From: a virus | Reading direction: 5' to 3' (one strand) | IMG/VR virus record: IMGVR_UViG_3300021964_000017 | DNA length: 64,000 nucleotides | Shown: piece after piece, positions 5,217 through 53,204 of the stretch | How positions within the stretch are numbered: position 1 is the first letter of the stretch | How the letters are laid out: every line of letters begins with the position of its first letter | Notes under the pieces: generated by a model | The model's database searches: none | Told to the model about the DNA's origin: nothing | What the model saw: the letters and a program-made list of their open reading frames with translations, nothing else | Translations under genes and position numbers: made by a program

Positions 5217-5490
5217 CGTAACCAAGGACAGCAACTTTAGATATTTCTTCGTCTTCTCTATCTCTCCACGCAGATGAAAATCCACTTTCGCTAACACAGT
5301 TTTCGTGATTGCCCCAGATGCGTTTCATATACGATTCGTATATTTCTTCTACATCTTTGTCGGACCATGATTGGGGGATTAATGAACCTTTTACTATCCA
5401 GTAAAAACGATTGGCTTGCTTACGCACATATGGTGAACACACATATAATACTCCTATAAATAGATACTTATACTCTGTTAGCGCTAACAA
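5212..5490 (-). CDS. Hypothetical protein (start uncertain)
   Basis: 92-aa ORF; YWIVKG...SYMKRIWGNHE. Confidence 0.6.
   Translation of the reverse strand: MLALTEYKYLFIGVLYVCSPYVRKQANRFYWIVKGSLIPQSWSDKDVEEIYESYMKRIWGNHENCVSESGFSSAWRDREDEEISKVAVLGYD
5455..5462 (+). promoter_or_regulatory. Late promoter driving the plus-strand arm of the oxygenase island
   Basis: TATAAATA upstream of 5538. Confidence 0.65.
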
Positions 5491-6509: not shown

Positions 6510-6813
6510 AACACAATCGTATACAATTATATTTAACACGCCCCAGGATGATGCACTCAGTGCAATGAATTTGGTAGGAGCTGATGTAGCTAACGACATT
6601 AGAGCTCTTATACATGAGGGATTAGTGGTTGGCAGCGTTGTTGATCAGGTTCAGAATTTATCATCGGATGGGTTAACTCTAAACGTGGAAAGAACCTTTA
6701 CAGATGAGGTTTATAACAATTTAATGGAAATCGTATCAGTAAGCGATATCAAAACTCAAATTGAAAATGTGACAGAAGTGAGTTCAGTGACATATGGATT
6801 TTCAGACTCTTGA
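6502..6813 (+). CDS. Hypothetical acidic protein
   Basis: 103-aa ORF translationally coupled to its neighbours. Confidence 0.7.
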   Translation: MAKTQSYTIIFNTPQDDALSAMNLVGADVANDIRALIHEGLVVGSVVDQVQNLSSDGLTLNVERTFTDEVYNNLMEIVSVSDIKTQIENVTEVSSVTYGFSDS

Positions 6814-7189
6814 TCAAATAGATGTAGAAGCAATATTGGATGAAGTTTCACATCTAATAGATCCTACTGATAATATATTGTTGCAAAAGGGTACAAGCAC
6901 TCTACACAATTTGCCGTATACAAATTCACTATTTGAAAAATATAATATGACTACATCTCGTATCATGAAGCTAACACCAAGAGAATGTTATTCATGGCAC
7001 ACTGATGTATCTCCAAGAATACACTTTCCTTTAATAACAAACGATAGCTGTCTTTTTATTTTAGAAGACACTGTTTATACAATGCCGTCAGGTAATGCGT
7101 ACTATGTTGATACTCGAAAAAAACACACTGCAATAAATGGTAACAGAAGAAATTTTATCAGGTATCACATTGTGGGCATGGTAAGTTGA
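6794..7189 (+). CDS. Fe(II)/2OG oxygenase-like cupin (Asp/Asn beta-hydroxylase-like)
   Basis: SWHTD...RIHFPLITN...KHTAIN...RYHIV. Confidence 0.75.
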   Translation: MDFQTLDQIDVEAILDEVSHLIDPTDNILLQKGTSTLHNLPYTNSLFEKYNMTTSRIMKLTPRECYSWHTDVSPRIHFPLITNDSCLFILEDTVYTMPSGNAYYVDTRKKHTAINGNRRNFIRYHIVGMVS

Positions 7190-7258: not shown

Positions 7259-7921
7259 ATGAAACCGATAGTCATCGTAGGGACGAGCCATAGTTCAGTA
7301 AGGTATTCACCAAGCCTAACAAACATTCTTTCTGAATTATCAACTGTTAAAAATCTGGCGGCATATGGCCATGGAATTGACACCTACTTTCCTAGAGTAG
7401 TAAAGATAAGAGAGCCATCGATATTTGTAATTGAAGCTCCTCATCATACTAGATATACAGAATTCATGAATGAGTCAACGTACGAACCATTTAGTTATAC
7501 AGATGATGAATTTTGGACTGAAAAGAGATATATGGATCATCTGGCGTTTTTCTCAAAGTCAGTTTTGTTACCAGATGAAGAATATAGGGAAGCAATACGT
7601 CCCAGTAAAAATGATCTAATTGCATTGCAAAGAATTAAAGTATTAGCAAACCAACAACTGGAATTAGAAGACAATATATTAAAATGTGTGGCCATTGATG
7701 TGTACTTGAAATACAACAACCATCAAGTTTATTGGTGGACAGCAAACAACAAGTTGTTGCATAAATGGAATCATGATTTTCATTTGCTTACAGATAAACC
7801 TGTGTTTGATAACTATCCAGATAAATCTATGTACCCTGACGGATACCATCTAGCAGATAAATATTTTAAACATATAATTAGAGAGAGTTTTGTAAATGAA
7901 TTGGTTCGAAGTAGATGTTAA
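7259..7921 (+). CDS. SGNH/GDSL hydrolase-like protein
   Basis: VGTSHS block I, NLAAYGHG block II, C-terminal DGYH. Confidence 0.6.
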   Translation: MKPIVIVGTSHSSVRYSPSLTNILSELSTVKNLAAYGHGIDTYFPRVVKIREPSIFVIEAPHHTRYTEFMNESTYEPFSYTDDEFWTEKRYMDHLAFFSKSVLLPDEEYREAIRPSKNDLIALQRIKVLANQQLELEDNILKCVAIDVYLKYNNHQVYWWTANNKLLHKWNHDFHLLTDKPVFDNYPDKSMYPDGYHLADKYFKHIIRESFVNELVRSRC

Positions 7922-8399
7922 TTTAAACGAAGAAGATTTTCATTGGGCTTTGGATATTGGAGACAACATCACGGAACCCAATTGGACTATACGTCCATAC
8001 AAACTAAATGATCAAGAGATGGATCGTATTTCTTATCTTACAGATCAAATTGGTACAGCTCCTAGCTATGCAGCAATAATAATGGTTCCAGCGAATAGTG
8101 TTTGTAAAACTCATGTTGATGACAAGGCTGATACTGCTGGAGTCAAACAAAGAATAACTGCTATCAACATTCCTATTCAAGTACACCAATCTTCTATGTT
8201 TCAATACATGATTAATGATCCATTTGCAGGAGAGATGGCTATAGAAATGGTTAAACTTAACACACCTAAATGTTGGAGGGTTGATATACCCCACAGAGTA
8301 GACAATAGTAAAAGTCCGTTTAACAGAGTTGTTCTAAGCCTATCTTATACTCAAACAATAGAGGAACTACATGAAGTATATCGTGCCATTAAAAATTGA
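7896..8399 (+). CDS. Fe(II)/2OG oxygenase-like cupin, paralog of 5538..6026
   Basis: THVD...PHRVDNSKSPFNRVVLSLSY, nearly identical blocks. Confidence 0.7.
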   Translation: MNWFEVDVNLNEEDFHWALDIGDNITEPNWTIRPYKLNDQEMDRISYLTDQIGTAPSYAAIIMVPANSVCKTHVDDKADTAGVKQRITAINIPIQVHQSSMFQYMINDPFAGEMAIEMVKLNTPKCWRVDIPHRVDNSKSPFNRVVLSLSYTQTIEELHEVYRAIKN

Positions 8400-8937
8400 A
8401 TATGATAAGAATCAATTTCTAGAATTCATTAATCGAAAAAATTTAGATTATGATGCATTGGCCCAAAAGAAACGATGGCACAATAACTTTCCTGTTGAAG
8501 AATTAAACATCGGACCTATCCAGCAATACATGAAGGATGTTGTTCTAATTCTTAGTTTGTTTCCAAAGTATCAAATACCAATTCATGCAGATGGTGCAGG
8601 GACCAGATTAGACAATACCTACAATGTCAGTATTAATTTTCCTGTTGCTAATTGCACTGAAGAGACAGTCACTCACTTCTGGGATTTTGAAGACAGACGT
8701 GAGATAAAATATATTCATCATGAGAAGTTGGGGACACGAGAAATAGTTGATAAGGACCAACTAGTAGTTGCACAAGATTATGTGTTTAGAGATACGCCTG
8801 TGCTATTCAGAAATGAATATCCTCATAGTGTATCTAATAAATGTAATAATTTGAGATTAATGTTAAGCTGGAGATTTAAACCAGAATATTCGTGGGAACA
8901 GGCAATTGAACTATGTGAGCAACATCACCTGTCATAA
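8371..8937 (+). CDS. Fe(II)/2OG oxygenase-like cupin
   Basis: IPIHAD...SINFP...PHSV...RLMLSW. Confidence 0.65.
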   Translation: MKYIVPLKIEYDKNQFLEFINRKNLDYDALAQKKRWHNNFPVEELNIGPIQQYMKDVVLILSLFPKYQIPIHADGAGTRLDNTYNVSINFPVANCTEETVTHFWDFEDRREIKYIHHEKLGTREIVDKDQLVVAQDYVFRDTPVLFRNEYPHSVSNKCNNLRLMLSWRFKPEYSWEQAIELCEQHHLS

Positions 8938-9325
8938 TATAGTGTTGATTGATAGTCCATTTATCTCGCTCAATTATAGTTTGTTGATAAACCTGATCAA
9001 ATAGATCCTTACCTGTAATTCTTTCTAGCGATTGCTTTACAAGGTCAATTCTTCTATATGATGTTGCAATTGTATAGTTCTCCATCACGTACTGATAGAT
9101 CTTGTTATCTAGTTTATGTAAGGAATGCCAATGGCCATGTAATACATGCTTGTGACCATATACTATTTCTTCTACATTATATTCATTTTTTCCAAGATAT
9201 TCAGGTGTGTGCAACACACCATGCGCAGGAAGTTTATTATGCTTTTCTGCAAGATAGTTTACTAATGCTTTGGATGCAGTTCGTGGAAAACTAATTACTG
9301 CTATATTAGAAATTGTGTTCTCCAT
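8876..9325 (-). CDS. Sulfotransferase-like protein
   Basis: VISFPRTAS resembles the 5'-PSB loop; YRR..LVKQS resembles the 3'-PB motif. Confidence 0.5.
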   Translation of the reverse strand: MENTISNIAVISFPRTASKALVNYLAEKHNKLPAHGVLHTPEYLGKNEYNVEEIVYGHKHVLHGHWHSLHKLDNKIYQYVMENYTIATSYRRIDLVKQSLERITGKDLFDQVYQQTIIERDKWTINQHYIMTGDVAHIVQLPVPTNILV

Positions 9326-9993
9326 AACAACCTTTCGCCTTCAAACGCTATACGCTTATGATTCATCCTTAGATTATCCCATACAAGTATTTCGTTATCT
9401 TTCCATTTATGTTTGTATGCGTTTTCTTCACAGTATTCTCTAATTGGTGTAACATCCCAATCAAAGTTTTGTAGTGTTCCTATGCTACAATATAATATCT
9501 CTTCGCCTGTAATATGGTGATTTATAATGAACGGACGAGTGGCCTTTTGTTTTTCTAAAATACGCAGCTGCTTTTCCGTAAAGCATTGTCCATGTAGGTT
9601 TTGTGGAGGATAATATTCTCCTACTGCATCCTTATAGATATGTTTTAAGATATCTGGTGCTTTACTCATATCACAAAACCAAGTAGGCGACAAGTGTGCA
9701 TTACTTACATTGTATAGTATTGTGCCAAAATAGTTACCTCTACCATAACTCCAATCATGATGCCACTGTACATCATCATTACCAAATAATCCACTATTGC
9801 TTAATTCCTGTACAGTTCTATTTTCATTAAGGACATGCTTTGTTGTTACTAACGGTTTACCTAATGCATTAGCAATCTTTTCGAATTGTTCTATAGTAAT
9901 CTTACCTGGCATTTGTATCTTAAGCAATCCATAATTTAGGAGATCGTCACGCAATGTGTGTAACCACTTATCCTGCCATTCTATTTCAAGCAT
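9301..9993 (-). CDS. TauD/TfdA-family dioxygenase
   Basis: WHHDWSY, TWFCDM, HKW...LVWDNLRMNHKR...RLLWR. Confidence 0.85.
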   Translation of the reverse strand: MLEIEWQDKWLHTLRDDLLNYGLLKIQMPGKITIEQFEKIANALGKPLVTTKHVLNENRTVQELSNSGLFGNDDVQWHHDWSYGRGNYFGTILYNVSNAHLSPTWFCDMSKAPDILKHIYKDAVGEYYPPQNLHGQCFTEKQLRILEKQKATRPFIINHHITGEEILYCSIGTLQNFDWDVTPIREYCEENAYKHKWKDNEILVWDNLRMNHKRIAFEGERLLWRTQFLI

Positions 9994-10582
9994 TGTATTC
10001 TCCTAAATGTTTTTCCATTTGTTCAAAGGTTAAATCTGGAAGTTCAATATGTAACATTAGCCTGTCTTTGTTAATATTTTTAACACCATGTCTTTTCATT
10101 ACATTCATTATAACTGGCTGTGTTATATTGTAGCTTCCACCATCCGGATAATATGTTAATGCTTCAGTAGTCTCAAACTCATTATAAAAAAGAGGAAGCA
10201 TTAACAAACAATTTTTTCTATAAGGATAATCGCCATGTACAGGAACATCTTCTCCTGCACGCTGCATAAAAAATGTAATTAATCCTGGCTTTAGTCCCAA
10301 ACCACTTAATTGTGCAATTATGGGTATTATACTTTCATGCATAACATCTGGATATGCTATAATGTCTGTCCTTGCCTGACTTTGTACGCCTTTACTTTGT
10401 AAATGCTTTTTTAGATCTCTTATGCTATCACCTTCAAAGTACCCATAATCACGTTTAAATTCATCTACGTATGTTGCTGGTGTATCCTCCAGCATTTCTA
10501 ATGATAATTTTTTAAAATATCTGTAAAGGGCAGCTGTGCAATATGTTATATCAATCAGTAATATTTCACTGGTGTGTGGCAA
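9986..10582 (-). CDS. Fe(II)/2OG oxygenase-like cupin
   Basis: VPVHGD...RHGV...DRLMLHI. Confidence 0.6.
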   Translation of the reverse strand: MPHTSEILLIDITYCTAALYRYFKKLSLEMLEDTPATYVDEFKRDYGYFEGDSIRDLKKHLQSKGVQSQARTDIIAYPDVMHESIIPIIAQLSGLGLKPGLITFFMQRAGEDVPVHGDYPYRKNCLLMLPLFYNEFETTEALTYYPDGGSYNITQPVIMNVMKRHGVKNINKDRLMLHIELPDLTFEQMEKHLGEYNA

Positions 10583-10584
10583 GG

Positions 10585-11457
10585 TTAAGAGGCTTCTGAC
10601 ATGAGACTTTCACAAGTCCATGTTTCAGAAGTTTCTCTCTTAGGGGTAAGCCAGATTCCAGCTCTCCATAATTCACGGTCTCCATCATATGCGTCCCTCT
10701 TGTGCAAGCTGTGGTGTTGATCACTCAGTACAATGTCGTACTGATCCCACTTATGAGTGTAGACATACTTGTCGCTAAGCGTATGTTCTTTTAGTTTATA
10801 ATACAAGTCATGTTGCTGATCATGAGTAAGTCCAGTGAATCCTCTAATAACACTCCAAGGGAAATACAACCCTTCCTTGTTGTTTATAGGATGAATTGTT
10901 ACCAGATCTTTTCTGGGCGCTTGCTTTTCAAATGATGTCTGACCATCAATGTCTCTAAATTCCATCATAGTCTGTTCGTCACTGAAAACATTTTTATAAT
11001 GCATCTTCTCTAACTTCATTTTTGCATTATACGTAACAGTCTTTGACTTTACCTTTCGGCAAACATCTTTTGTATCATCATCTAAGTCTTCCCATGCAGA
11101 TTGGTGATCAGTAAAATAAGTGTCACCACCACTATCTGCTTTTTGATGCATATACATTGCAACAATGTCATCGTGGCCAGTTCTATTCATACCTGCACTA
11201 TGCCATTCTAACTCACCATCATCCTTGCCTGCAAACAAACCATTCTGTCTTACCTTGACAAGTTCTCCAGTAGCAATGGTGCCTGTTACCTTTTTGTTTT
11301 GTTTTACAACATCACCTATCTTCTTGTAGAACTCTATCAGAGTTTGAGGAGCAAGAGGCACTTTATTTTTTATGATAACAGTTCTATACTCTCCAATCAA
11401 TTCTCTAATTCTTGGAGCATCCGTATCATAATTTATGTCATTTACAATATAAGTCAT
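10585..11457 (-). CDS. TauD/TfdA-family enzyme with HxA in place of HxD (candidate halogenase)
   Basis: EWHSAG, GGDTYFTD, LVTIHP, YTHKW...SDQHHSLHKR...RELWR. Confidence 0.8.
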   Translation of the reverse strand: MTYIVNDINYDTDAPRIRELIGEYRTVIIKNKVPLAPQTLIEFYKKIGDVVKQNKKVTGTIATGELVKVRQNGLFAGKDDGELEWHSAGMNRTGHDDIVAMYMHQKADSGGDTYFTDHQSAWEDLDDDTKDVCRKVKSKTVTYNAKMKLEKMHYKNVFSDEQTMMEFRDIDGQTSFEKQAPRKDLVTIHPINNKEGLYFPWSVIRGFTGLTHDQQHDLYYKLKEHTLSDKYVYTHKWDQYDIVLSDQHHSLHKRDAYDGDRELWRAGIWLTPKRETSETWTCESLMSEAS

Positions 11458-11954
11458 TTTTTCTCCATCAATAGTTCAGCAGTATTATTTATAGGTGTCC
11501 AAGCTATATGCTGATAATCATTCTCTGTCATTCTATACAATTGATCGGGAGTATGCCATAGCTGAGGTAAGTATTTTTTATAATGATTAAACGCTTGAGT
11601 CTTTGCTTCTCTACTCATGAACGCACAATCAAAACCAAGTTGTTTAGCAACGATTAGTTGTTGATCGATCATCTGCAATGTTTCTTGTGACACTCTTGCT
11701 TTTTTATTTTCAAATCTATAGTTAGGAACTTTATAAAACCTATTTAAAATTCGACAATTGTTCTGCCAATATGGTCTCCATATTACTGAAGAAAATCCTC
11801 CGGCAAAAACTGATACTGCTTCCCACTCTTGTGTTTTTAATTGTTGATATGAATAATTAAGGCGTAGCTTGTCGTTTGGAAGATTACTTACCATTTCCTT
11901 TATTTGTTCTATACAATCGATAAAGTCTGGATGATCTCTAATAACCGTTTTCAT
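11454..11954 (-). CDS. Hypothetical protein, possible GNAT-like fold
   Basis: RILNRFYKVPNYR...AKQLGFDCAFMSRE pattern. Confidence 0.55.
   Translation of the reverse strand: MKTVIRDHPDFIDCIEQIKEMVSNLPNDKLRLNYSYQQLKTQEWEAVSVFAGGFSSVIWRPYWQNNCRILNRFYKVPNYRFENKKARVSQETLQMIDQQLIVAKQLGFDCAFMSREAKTQAFNHYKKYLPQLWHTPDQLYRMTENDYQHIAWTPINNTAELLMEKK
11486..11493 (-). promoter_or_regulatory. Late promoter upstream of the TauD pair
   Basis: TATAAATA about 30 bp upstream of 11457. Confidence 0.6.
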
Positions 11955-12870
11955 TTTTCTTCACGTGTTCAAAAAAAGGAGCAATCTTAAAGTTTTCTGT
12001 TAACCTACCTCTGTTAGGATTATCATGATCAATCACCCCATCGTCATTTGTCTGCCAATCAATAAGGCGAATAAGAACTGTACCAGCTCTAGTTTTATAT
12101 GGAAACATCATAGACGTAAGAGCCTCCATTGTAGGTCCTGCCTTTACTACTCCAGCAGATGTTTGTATCATTTGATCTTTTGTAACGCCCAGTCTATACT
12201 CAGCCATATCAATTAACTCTTCCATGGTATGAGAACAATCTTCCATATACCGCCCGATGGCACCAACGCTTTTCATTCTTAATACTGGAGTAATTTTATT
12301 GTAAGGTTTAGTTGTATCGAAGTTTATACCATGAGCAATTGCTCTTTCTGCAAACAGCTCTATCTGTCTTAACATGGTAAACTCATTAACTCCTTTTGCA
12401 ATAATTGTTCCGGTATTAACAGGAAGTCTTTGTTCAAATATATTGTCCAGAGCTCTTACTTTTACTGTTGCCCATTTGCCATTATCAAGCTCCTTGTATA
12501 CCAAATCATCATCTGCTCCATTCATACTATGAAGCAACAACCTTAGACCAGAATCTTTCAATTGTTTGACGTAAGATTTGTTTGCTAGCTTTAAACCATT
12601 AGTTGTTAGACTAGGTCTATGGCCAAGAGACTTTACCATATAAATTATCTCACATATATCTTCTCTCATTGTGGGCTCAGCACCAATTAATCTAATGTAA
12701 GTTCTAAATGGAAGTTTTTTAAGAAAGTCGTATAGATTGCTTGTTGGTAGATCGGGAACATCTCTATTGGGAATGTAGCAGTTAGCACATTCCATGTTAC
12801 ATCTGTGAGTTAAATCAACTACAATGTTTGAGAACGTATTGTTCTCTGGATCGAGTTCATAATAATTCAT
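11938..12870 (-). CDS. Radical SAM protein (MoaA-like N-terminal domain, no C-terminal Cys cluster)
   Basis: CNMECANC (CxxxCxxC), LIGAEPT, LTTNG; start MNYYE after a GAGG RBS. Confidence 0.85.
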   Translation of the reverse strand: MNYYELDPENNTFSNIVVDLTHRCNMECANCYIPNRDVPDLPTSNLYDFLKKLPFRTYIRLIGAEPTMREDICEIIYMVKSLGHRPSLTTNGLKLANKSYVKQLKDSGLRLLLHSMNGADDDLVYKELDNGKWATVKVRALDNIFEQRLPVNTGTIIAKGVNEFTMLRQIELFAERAIAHGINFDTTKPYNKITPVLRMKSVGAIGRYMEDCSHTMEELIDMAEYRLGVTKDQMIQTSAGVVKAGPTMEALTSMMFPYKTRAGTVLIRLIDWQTNDDGVIDHDNPNRGRLTENFKIAPFFEHVKKNENGY

Positions 12871-12943
12871 ATTGTTACCCTCGTTATGGACGTTTTGCCC
12901 TCGTCCGCACACTACTATTTATTGCATAATATTTTTACATTAT

Positions 12944-17296: not shown

Positions 17297-17304
17297 TATT
17301 TATA
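17297..17304 (-). promoter_or_regulatory. Late promoter of the exported-protein operon
   Basis: TATAAATA immediately upstream of 17286. Confidence 0.75.
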
Positions 17305-53167: not shown

Positions 53168-53204
53168 ATTACCTGTTGACTTGTTATTATTTATATGTGA
53201 TAAA
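53168..53204 (+). promoter_or_regulatory. Early promoter (+) overlapping a minus-strand late promoter (53188-53195) for gp3
   Basis: AATTACCTG-TTGACT; TATTTATA lies inside the spacer. Confidence 0.6.

Follow-up and report, generated by a model that had tools for sequence, protein, structure and literature searches.

Does a phage enzyme of the TauD fold, in which alanine takes the place of the iron-binding aspartate, halogenate its substrate, or does it oxidize this substrate with an iron center held by two histidines only? The question is raised by an open reading frame (ORF) at 10585–11457 of the viral record IMGVR_UViG_3300021964_000017, of which a stretch of 64,000 nucleotides (hereafter the window) was analyzed. 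A preliminary description of the window had proposed a candidate phage-encoded Fe(II)/2-oxoglutarate (2OG) halogenase. Such enzymes are sought for selective C–H halogenation, and few lineages are known for free substrates. Our analysis leads us to favor, tentatively, a functional Fe/2OG oxidase with a two-His site whose open position is taken by water or by the substrate and which would not halogenate.

The window belongs to a marine T4-like myovirus. It encodes gp23, gp20, the sheath, terminase and UvsW, together with a family-B polymerase that shares 54% identity with that of Phage C48C1 and 47% with those of cyanomyoviruses. A nucleotide comparison of the window with known phages gave no match, and tblastn yielded a single match, to a TauD of Pelagibacter phage Mosig with 26.5% identity. 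PHROGs contained no family for either TauD protein or for their small neighbors. Features of the region are collected in Table 1.

Table 1. Coordinates of the HxA gene, its active-site codons, its neighbors and the promoter motif in the window.
Feature	Position	Strand	Basis or remark
TauD/TfdA-fold Fe(II)/2OG enzyme (putative), 290 aa, H86-x-A88...H252 site	10585..11457	-	ORF, Pfam PF02668, AF2 model, fold match
W85-H86-S87-A88 codons; Ala at facial-triad carboxylate position	11194..11205	-	Sequence; alignment to RdpA/TfdA
E82 codon (G-E-L-x-W-H), four residues before His86	11212..11214	-	Group conservation; alignment to TfdA 'GNCLWH'
T113 codon of GGDT motif	11119..11121	-	Nearly invariant column
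H252-K253-R254 codons: distal His ligand and Arg254	10696..10704	-	Invariant columns; group comparison
R261-E-L-W-R265 codons	10663..10677	-	Alignment to TfdA 'RDMRR'; invariant
Radical SAM enzyme, 324 aa, first cassette gene	11938..12912	-	PF04055 E 8e-15; synteny
GNAT-fold protein, 166 aa	11454..11954	-	AF2 pLDDT 91.5; PDB fold matches; synteny
198-aa ORF, H-G-D...H spacing, between both TauD genes	9986..10582	-	ORF; no family match
Short TauD, 230 aa, canonical W-H-H-D...H-K-R	9301..9993	-	PF02668 E 1.9e-17
Sulfotransferase-like protein, 149 aa, S-F-P-R-T-A-S loop; usual last cassette gene	8876..9325	-	ORF; synteny
T4-type late-promoter motif TATAAATA	11486..11493	-	29 nt upstream of ATG, inside GNAT-fold gene

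The assignment of the ORF to the TauD fold, as first proposed from its sequence, is well founded. PF02668 was the only Pfam family matched (E = 8e-30; score 105 bits, cutoff 27; residues 11–266), with no match to PF05118. An AF2 model based on 71 homologues (pLDDT 91.5, pTM 0.88) superposed on 5hsx (Z 24.9), TauD (1gqw; Z 24.3) and RdpA (Z 24.2). Fold similarity at Z 22–25 extends over the PF02668 enzymes TauD, AtsK, TfdA/AAD-2, RdpA/AAD-1 and ScoE/Rv0097, and the family profile matched TauD/TfdA-type dioxygenases at E values of 1e-28 to 1e-18. For halogenases, the scores (Z 10.5 for WelO5, 8.3 for HalB) stayed at the level of generic 2OG oxygenases, and no halogenase chain was matched by the family profile at E ≤ 1 among PDB sequences.

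The minus-strand codons TGG CAT AGT GCA at 11205–11194 encode W-H-S-A in place of the WH(T/S)D motif, as originally described. HMMER alignments pair 'WHSAG' with 'WHTDS' of RdpA (6d1o) and 'WHSDS' of TfdA/AAD-2 (5bke); in phmmer and family-profile comparisons with PDB sequences, the longer segment 'ELEWHSAG' is aligned to 'GENWHTDS' of RdpA and 'GNCLWHSDS' of TfdA/AAD-2. Because 'WHSA' aligns to WHTD and WHSD of these enzymes, Ala88 occupies the position of the iron-binding Asp, and the protein has H86-S-A88...H252 where the facial triad reads His-x-Asp/Glu...His. Misalignment of the motif was ruled out, as Pfam, phmmer and profile alignments all set Ala88 on the Asp.

Other parts of the active site are those of a TauD/TfdA enzyme: both histidines, the Thr of GGDT, the 2OG Arg and the substrate-anion Arg are common to the two. 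The distal S-L-H252-K-R254 and R261-E-L-W-R265 segments are intact, also in agreement with the preliminary description. Across an alignment of 19 sequences that are 41–80% identical, H86, A88, H252, R254, R261 and R265 are invariant. R261 and R265 align with the first and second Arg of the 'RDMRR' motif of TfdA, and from established TauD/TfdA structures we take them to be the Arg residues for the 2OG C5 carboxylate and the substrate anion, respectively; T113 presumably corresponds to the residue that contacts the 2OG C1 carboxylate in TauD. Since H86, H252, R254, R261 and R265 are invariant and T113 is nearly so, the protein is probably a live enzyme. Apart from Ala88, it differs from TauD/TfdA enzymes in the additional invariant Arg254, which is Ala in canonical TauD relatives and was found throughout the superclade of Asn- and Ala-bearing proteins described below. 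Glu82 is conserved in the Ala and Asn groups and not in canonical relatives, with TfdA carrying Asn four residues before its first His. We equate this position with the amine-binding Asn95 of TauD, so that Glu82 is a probable contact to a substrate amine. Together with Arg265 and the adjacent GNAT gene, Glu82 suggests an anionic substrate that bears an amine.

A word-indexed search of 5.8 billion proteins returned 95 matches, 88 of them at no less than 40% identity. All but one of these 88 homologue clusters carry H-x-A, and the remaining one carries H-x-E. Among the 38 related loci that were fetched, the Ala codon is GCT in 11, GCA in 11 and GCC in three distinct contexts. The synonymous variation of the codon indicates that the residue itself is maintained, and Ala88 is under purifying selection. 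The conservation of HxA on which the preliminary description had made its proposal depend was therefore found, and a sequencing error or one-off mutation was ruled out by the 87 clusters and the three Ala codons.

The HxA clade was seen in viral or metagenomic DNA only, in which it differs from TauD/TfdA enzymes, as it does in its association with radical SAM and GNAT genes. IMG/VR contributed 27 loci of the family, and homologues are annotated at the source as 'taurine dioxygenase' or not at all. A scan with two peptide patterns of one genome for each of 185,579 prokaryote species detected no HxA member; it yielded just two His-x-Asn proteins, 29–31% identical, both in metagenome-assembled genomes.

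When 1.84 billion representatives were searched exhaustively with HMMER, 563 matches were obtained; those with at least 200 residues were aligned, and 149 entered a midpoint-rooted FastTree phylogeny. The tree separates a canonical HxD outgroup (n = 40) from a superclade of 106 representatives (support 100), all of which have the extra Arg two residues past the distal His that is replaced by Ala in canonical relatives. At the ligand position, the superclade has Asn in 53, Ala in 29 and Asp in 18 of the 106 members, with a few Glu, His, Gly and Cys, and N/D switches are scattered across the tree. The HxA clade (support 100; 27 Ala, two Glu and one Cys) is nested inside this superclade, and the small pair P0112/P0154 represents a separate, second origin of HxA. 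Closely related proteins can differ at this very position: L036 (W-H-N-A; 7974–8873) and L037 (W-H-N-D; 1689–2573) are orthologues with 72% identity, and P0084 (Ala) and P0086 (Glu) are orthologues with 60% identity. Glu82, Asp117 and Asp246 are unchanged in both pairs.

His-x-Asn TauD-like relatives associated with viruses and metagenomes include P0089–P0162, L008:2088–3035, L010, L011 and L041:7001–7993. Those from marine phages (such as P0092 and L008:2088–3035) are the nearest sequence relatives of the HxA protein, at 27–31% identity, and share with it the G-E-L-x-W-H, H-K-R and R-E-L-W-R segments. They lie in similar phage islands with genes for radical SAM enzymes, PF05118 proteins and fatty-acid desaturases, and differ from the HxA protein in the Asn at the ligand position and in their neighboring genes. 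We know of no characterized His-x-Asn 2OG oxygenase, and a literature search on such enzymes found none.

Gene order around the HxA gene is conserved. In 26 of the 38 loci, a radical SAM gene is followed by genes for a 166–208-aa protein, the HxA TauD and a short HxD TauD, and usually at the end by a gene for a 149–198-aa sulfotransferase-like protein; no locus with a protein that reaches 50% identity to that of the window falls outside these 26. The radical SAM protein showed partial matches, confined to the generic core, to TrsS, Tes and MoaA. The 166-aa protein encoded by the second gene had no Pfam, PHROG or NCBIfam match, and its best 50 PDB fold matches were all of the GNAT fold (Z 8.2–10.2), almost all of them acyl-CoA N-acyltransferases, the few exceptions being AHL and N-acyl amino acid synthases. 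By synteny, this GNAT-fold gene always stands between the radical SAM and HxA genes. That this cassette of radical SAM, GNAT and TauD genes is conserved implies that marine T4-like phages, which are abundant, produce or alter a small molecule while they infect, or else a component of the virion or the cell surface.

The second TauD does read W-H-H-D, as had been reported for the neighboring paralog, and is adjacent to the HxA gene in the same proportion of loci (26 of 38). In the window, however, the suggested hydroxylase partner is a short and distant TauD, separated from the HxA gene by another gene and only 27% identical to the HxA protein over 91 residues. The 198-aa ORF that separates the two TauD genes was found between them in the window and L021 only, and is located elsewhere or absent in the others of the 38 loci. 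The S-F-P-R-T-A-S loop of the protein at 8876–9325 resembles the PAPS-binding loop of sulfotransferases, and its orthologue in L006/L007 has a faint match to PF03567. No phosphopantetheine-binding domain was found among the called neighbors in the window and L001–L009.

Deeper HxA members (at most 48% identity) lie outside the cassette, and those of L030–L037 are without an HxD TauD partner. In L039, an HxE/HxA TauD tandem directly follows the DNA polymerase gene. An expanded phage island is present in L008 (ENA k141_123233) and its relative L009. That of L008 begins with genes for PanD (aspartate decarboxylase), an HxN TauD, a short HxD TauD and a fatty-acid desaturase and continues with those for a radical SAM enzyme, a 208-aa protein, a pair of HxA TauDs in tandem, an ATP-grasp protein and PhyH, which hints at a product derived from beta-alanine or an amino acid. 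On another phage contig (L041:8067–14638), the genes next to an HxN TauD encode a fatty-acid desaturase, a PF05118 protein and, in an unbroken row, four radical SAM enzymes.

How the iron site works without a carboxylate, its geometry being deduced from sequence and strand register, can be read in several ways. As a radical halogenase, the enzyme would bind Cl or Br to the iron where Ala88 leaves room, hydrogen would be abstracted from the substrate by a halo-ferryl and the halogen would rebound; we consider this a fair possibility, though less likely than the oxidase. The corresponding view of the whole HxA clade, as virus-borne Fe(II)/2OG halogenases of independent origin on the TauD/TfdA scaffold that would chlorinate or brominate an amine-bearing molecule from the four-gene cassette (radical SAM, GNAT and two TauDs), has in our judgment the same standing. 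Fe(II)/2OG halogenases arose several times, so that a new origin would be compatible with the lack of detectable kinship to known ones, and those of the BesD type and plant DAH branch from within groups that bear a ligand side chain, as does the HxA clade. Like SyrB2, WelO5, BesD/HalB, AdaV and DAH, the HxA protein combines HxA/G with an intact distal His and 2OG site; its other catalytic residues are intact too, and like theirs its replacement is conserved within the clade, strictly so in the main clade despite synonymous codon turnover. The occurrence of HxA beside HxD or HxE paralogues, in the window and in L039, resembles halogenase/hydroxylase pairs, and the marine setting is rich in chloride. 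Antiparallel strand pairing should place Ser250, a conserved residue of the HxA group, next to Ala88, where it could form a hydrogen bond with a halide. HxG/A is also the standard criterion by which the field mines halogenases (PMC11186838; PMC13519999), although it gives false positives (PMC13519999). Viral halogenation as such has a precedent in VirX1, a flavin-dependent halogenase from a cyanophage and the only viral halogenase cited in the literature searched. Our literature search found no described viral or phage Fe/2OG halogenase, in line with the earlier statement that no phage example is known. Several observations nevertheless weigh against halogenation. Kinship with halogenases is confined to distant fold likeness (Z 10.5 and 8.3, compared with 24–25 for TauD) and has no detectable counterpart in sequence; most of the superclade is HxN, the residue at position 88 switches often, and Ala-bearing proteins have Asp- and Glu-bearing orthologues. 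SyrB2-type halogenases act on carrier-protein-tethered substrates, whereas the cassette includes no carrier-protein gene, and no halogenated product is known. Human AspH provides a counter-example: in this natural 2OG hydroxylase, water joins two His ligands at the iron, and there is no halogenation, not even when pseudohalides are used (PMC13168262). Likewise, single Asp-to-Ala/Gly swaps alone do not make halogenases (bioRxiv 10.1101/2023.05.25.542349). HxA is necessary and not sufficient for halogenation, and the proposal of a phage halogenase is weakened: its conserved two-His site on a TauD scaffold stands, and the HxN superclade, the orthologue pairs, the lack of detectable halogenase kinship and AspH speak against the function assigned to it.

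Two further readings would dispense with an open iron site or with catalysis altogether. A different residue such as Asp117 or His249 might reach the iron and restore an ordinary three-ligand enzyme, for which the near invariance of both residues in the HxA group could be cited (Asp117 in 91 and His249 in 92 of 93 sequences). Asp117, which is mostly Asn in the HxN group, is also Asp in TfdA and most canonical HxD relatives, which argues that it does not compensate for the lost ligand, and the natural Asp and Glu revertants still have it. His249, variable outside the HxA group, is three residues before His252 and on a regular strand would face the other way. A comparison of group-specific conservation revealed no carboxylate column particular to the HxA group and hence no sign of another Asp or Glu that fills the site; a relocated ligand seems very improbable to us. 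The protein might instead have lost tight iron binding and serve the canonical TauD or the radical SAM enzyme as a non-catalytic TauD-fold partner for substrate binding or scaffolding. Loss of metal ligands is a common route to pseudoenzymes, and the HxA gene is paired with a canonical HxD TauD; yet the two histidines, the Thr and Arg for 2OG and the Arg for the substrate stay invariant while the sequences diverge by more than 60%, as would be unexpected for a pseudoenzyme, and the deeper members of L030–L037 have no HxD gene to partner. We hold such a role to be very unlikely as well, and the remaining probability goes to some explanation other than those considered here.

The two-His oxidase remains our preferred, if tentative, account. 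Building on the observed fold, motif, conservation and gene cassette, the use of iron and 2OG, the type of substrate, the sixth ligand and the outcome of the reaction may be envisaged as follows. His86 and His252 would be the sole protein ligands of the iron, and 2OG would be bound in the manner of TauD by Thr113 and Arg261. The substrate would probably be a small molecule with an anionic group, recognized by Arg265 and perhaps Arg254, and an amine, recognized by Glu82, and would be made or further tailored by the products of the radical SAM, GNAT-fold, short TauD(HxD) and sulfotransferase-like genes. An outside ligand, either water or the anionic group of the substrate itself, would fill the site opened by Ala88, and a C–H bond would be hydroxylated or otherwise oxidized, as the Asn-bearing relatives presumably do.

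The superclade offers an argument for a two-His oxidase. Because Asn mostly fills the site, its members appear to work already without an anionic protein ligand; Asn would occupy the ligand position and exclude halide, which points to an ancestral chemistry independent of the carboxylate. Ala together with water would then supply a neutral O-donor that mimics Asn. The Ala/Asp and Ala/Glu pairs, with no coupled change in other carboxylates, also count for an oxidase of this kind, and the AspH precedent, the swap results and the lack of close halogenase kinship may be added on the same side. The comparison with AspH applies to the two His ligands and the missing carboxylate; AspH belongs to a different subfamily (PF05118), has its water held by a second-sphere carboxylate, Asp721, and acts on EGF domains of proteins. 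Two points count against a two-His oxidase. At a permissive site, Ala should have given way to Gly, Ser, Thr, Asp or Glu over the 40–100% divergence of the main clade, which has not happened. Moreover, every characterized natural HxA/G 2OG enzyme known to us outside the AspH family is a halogenase.

If the enzyme were a halogenase, it would be the first non-heme-iron halogenase from any virus and the first on a TauD/TfdA scaffold, and the natural Ala/Asp and Ala/Glu orthologue pairs would be ready-made comparisons between halogenase and hydroxylase. As a soluble candidate of 290 aa with the TauD fold, it would provide an unusually clean system in which to test the change from hydroxylase to halogenase, with hundreds of natural variants and Ala, Asp, Glu and Asn versions at one position. 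Even without halogenation, a large virus-associated branch of TauD would work without the canonical carboxylate, mostly with His-x-Asn and here with His-x-Ala, a carboxylate-free coordination chemistry that has not been described for 2OG oxygenases.

A PF05118 protein (Asp/Asn beta-hydroxylase family) of 131 aa with W-H-T-D...K-H-T is encoded in the window itself at 6794–7189 on the plus strand (E = 3e-9). It is among several small oxygenase-like genes in the facing operon (7896–8399, 8371–8937 and 9986–10582).

The preliminary description had also assigned the HxA gene its own late promoter. A T4-type motif is indeed present upstream, and TATAAATA is three-fold enriched in the window (18 found against 5.9 expected, a count reached by none of 100 shuffles). 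A dedicated late promoter is nevertheless not a feature of the family, because this copy falls within the GNAT-fold gene and no more than three of 25 related loci have kept it. Scans for sigma-70 promoters and terminators between 8.5 and 13.5 kb gave no more than chance. Further TATAAATA sites occur in the window at 5455–5462 on the plus strand and at 17297–17304 and 53188–53195 on the minus strand.
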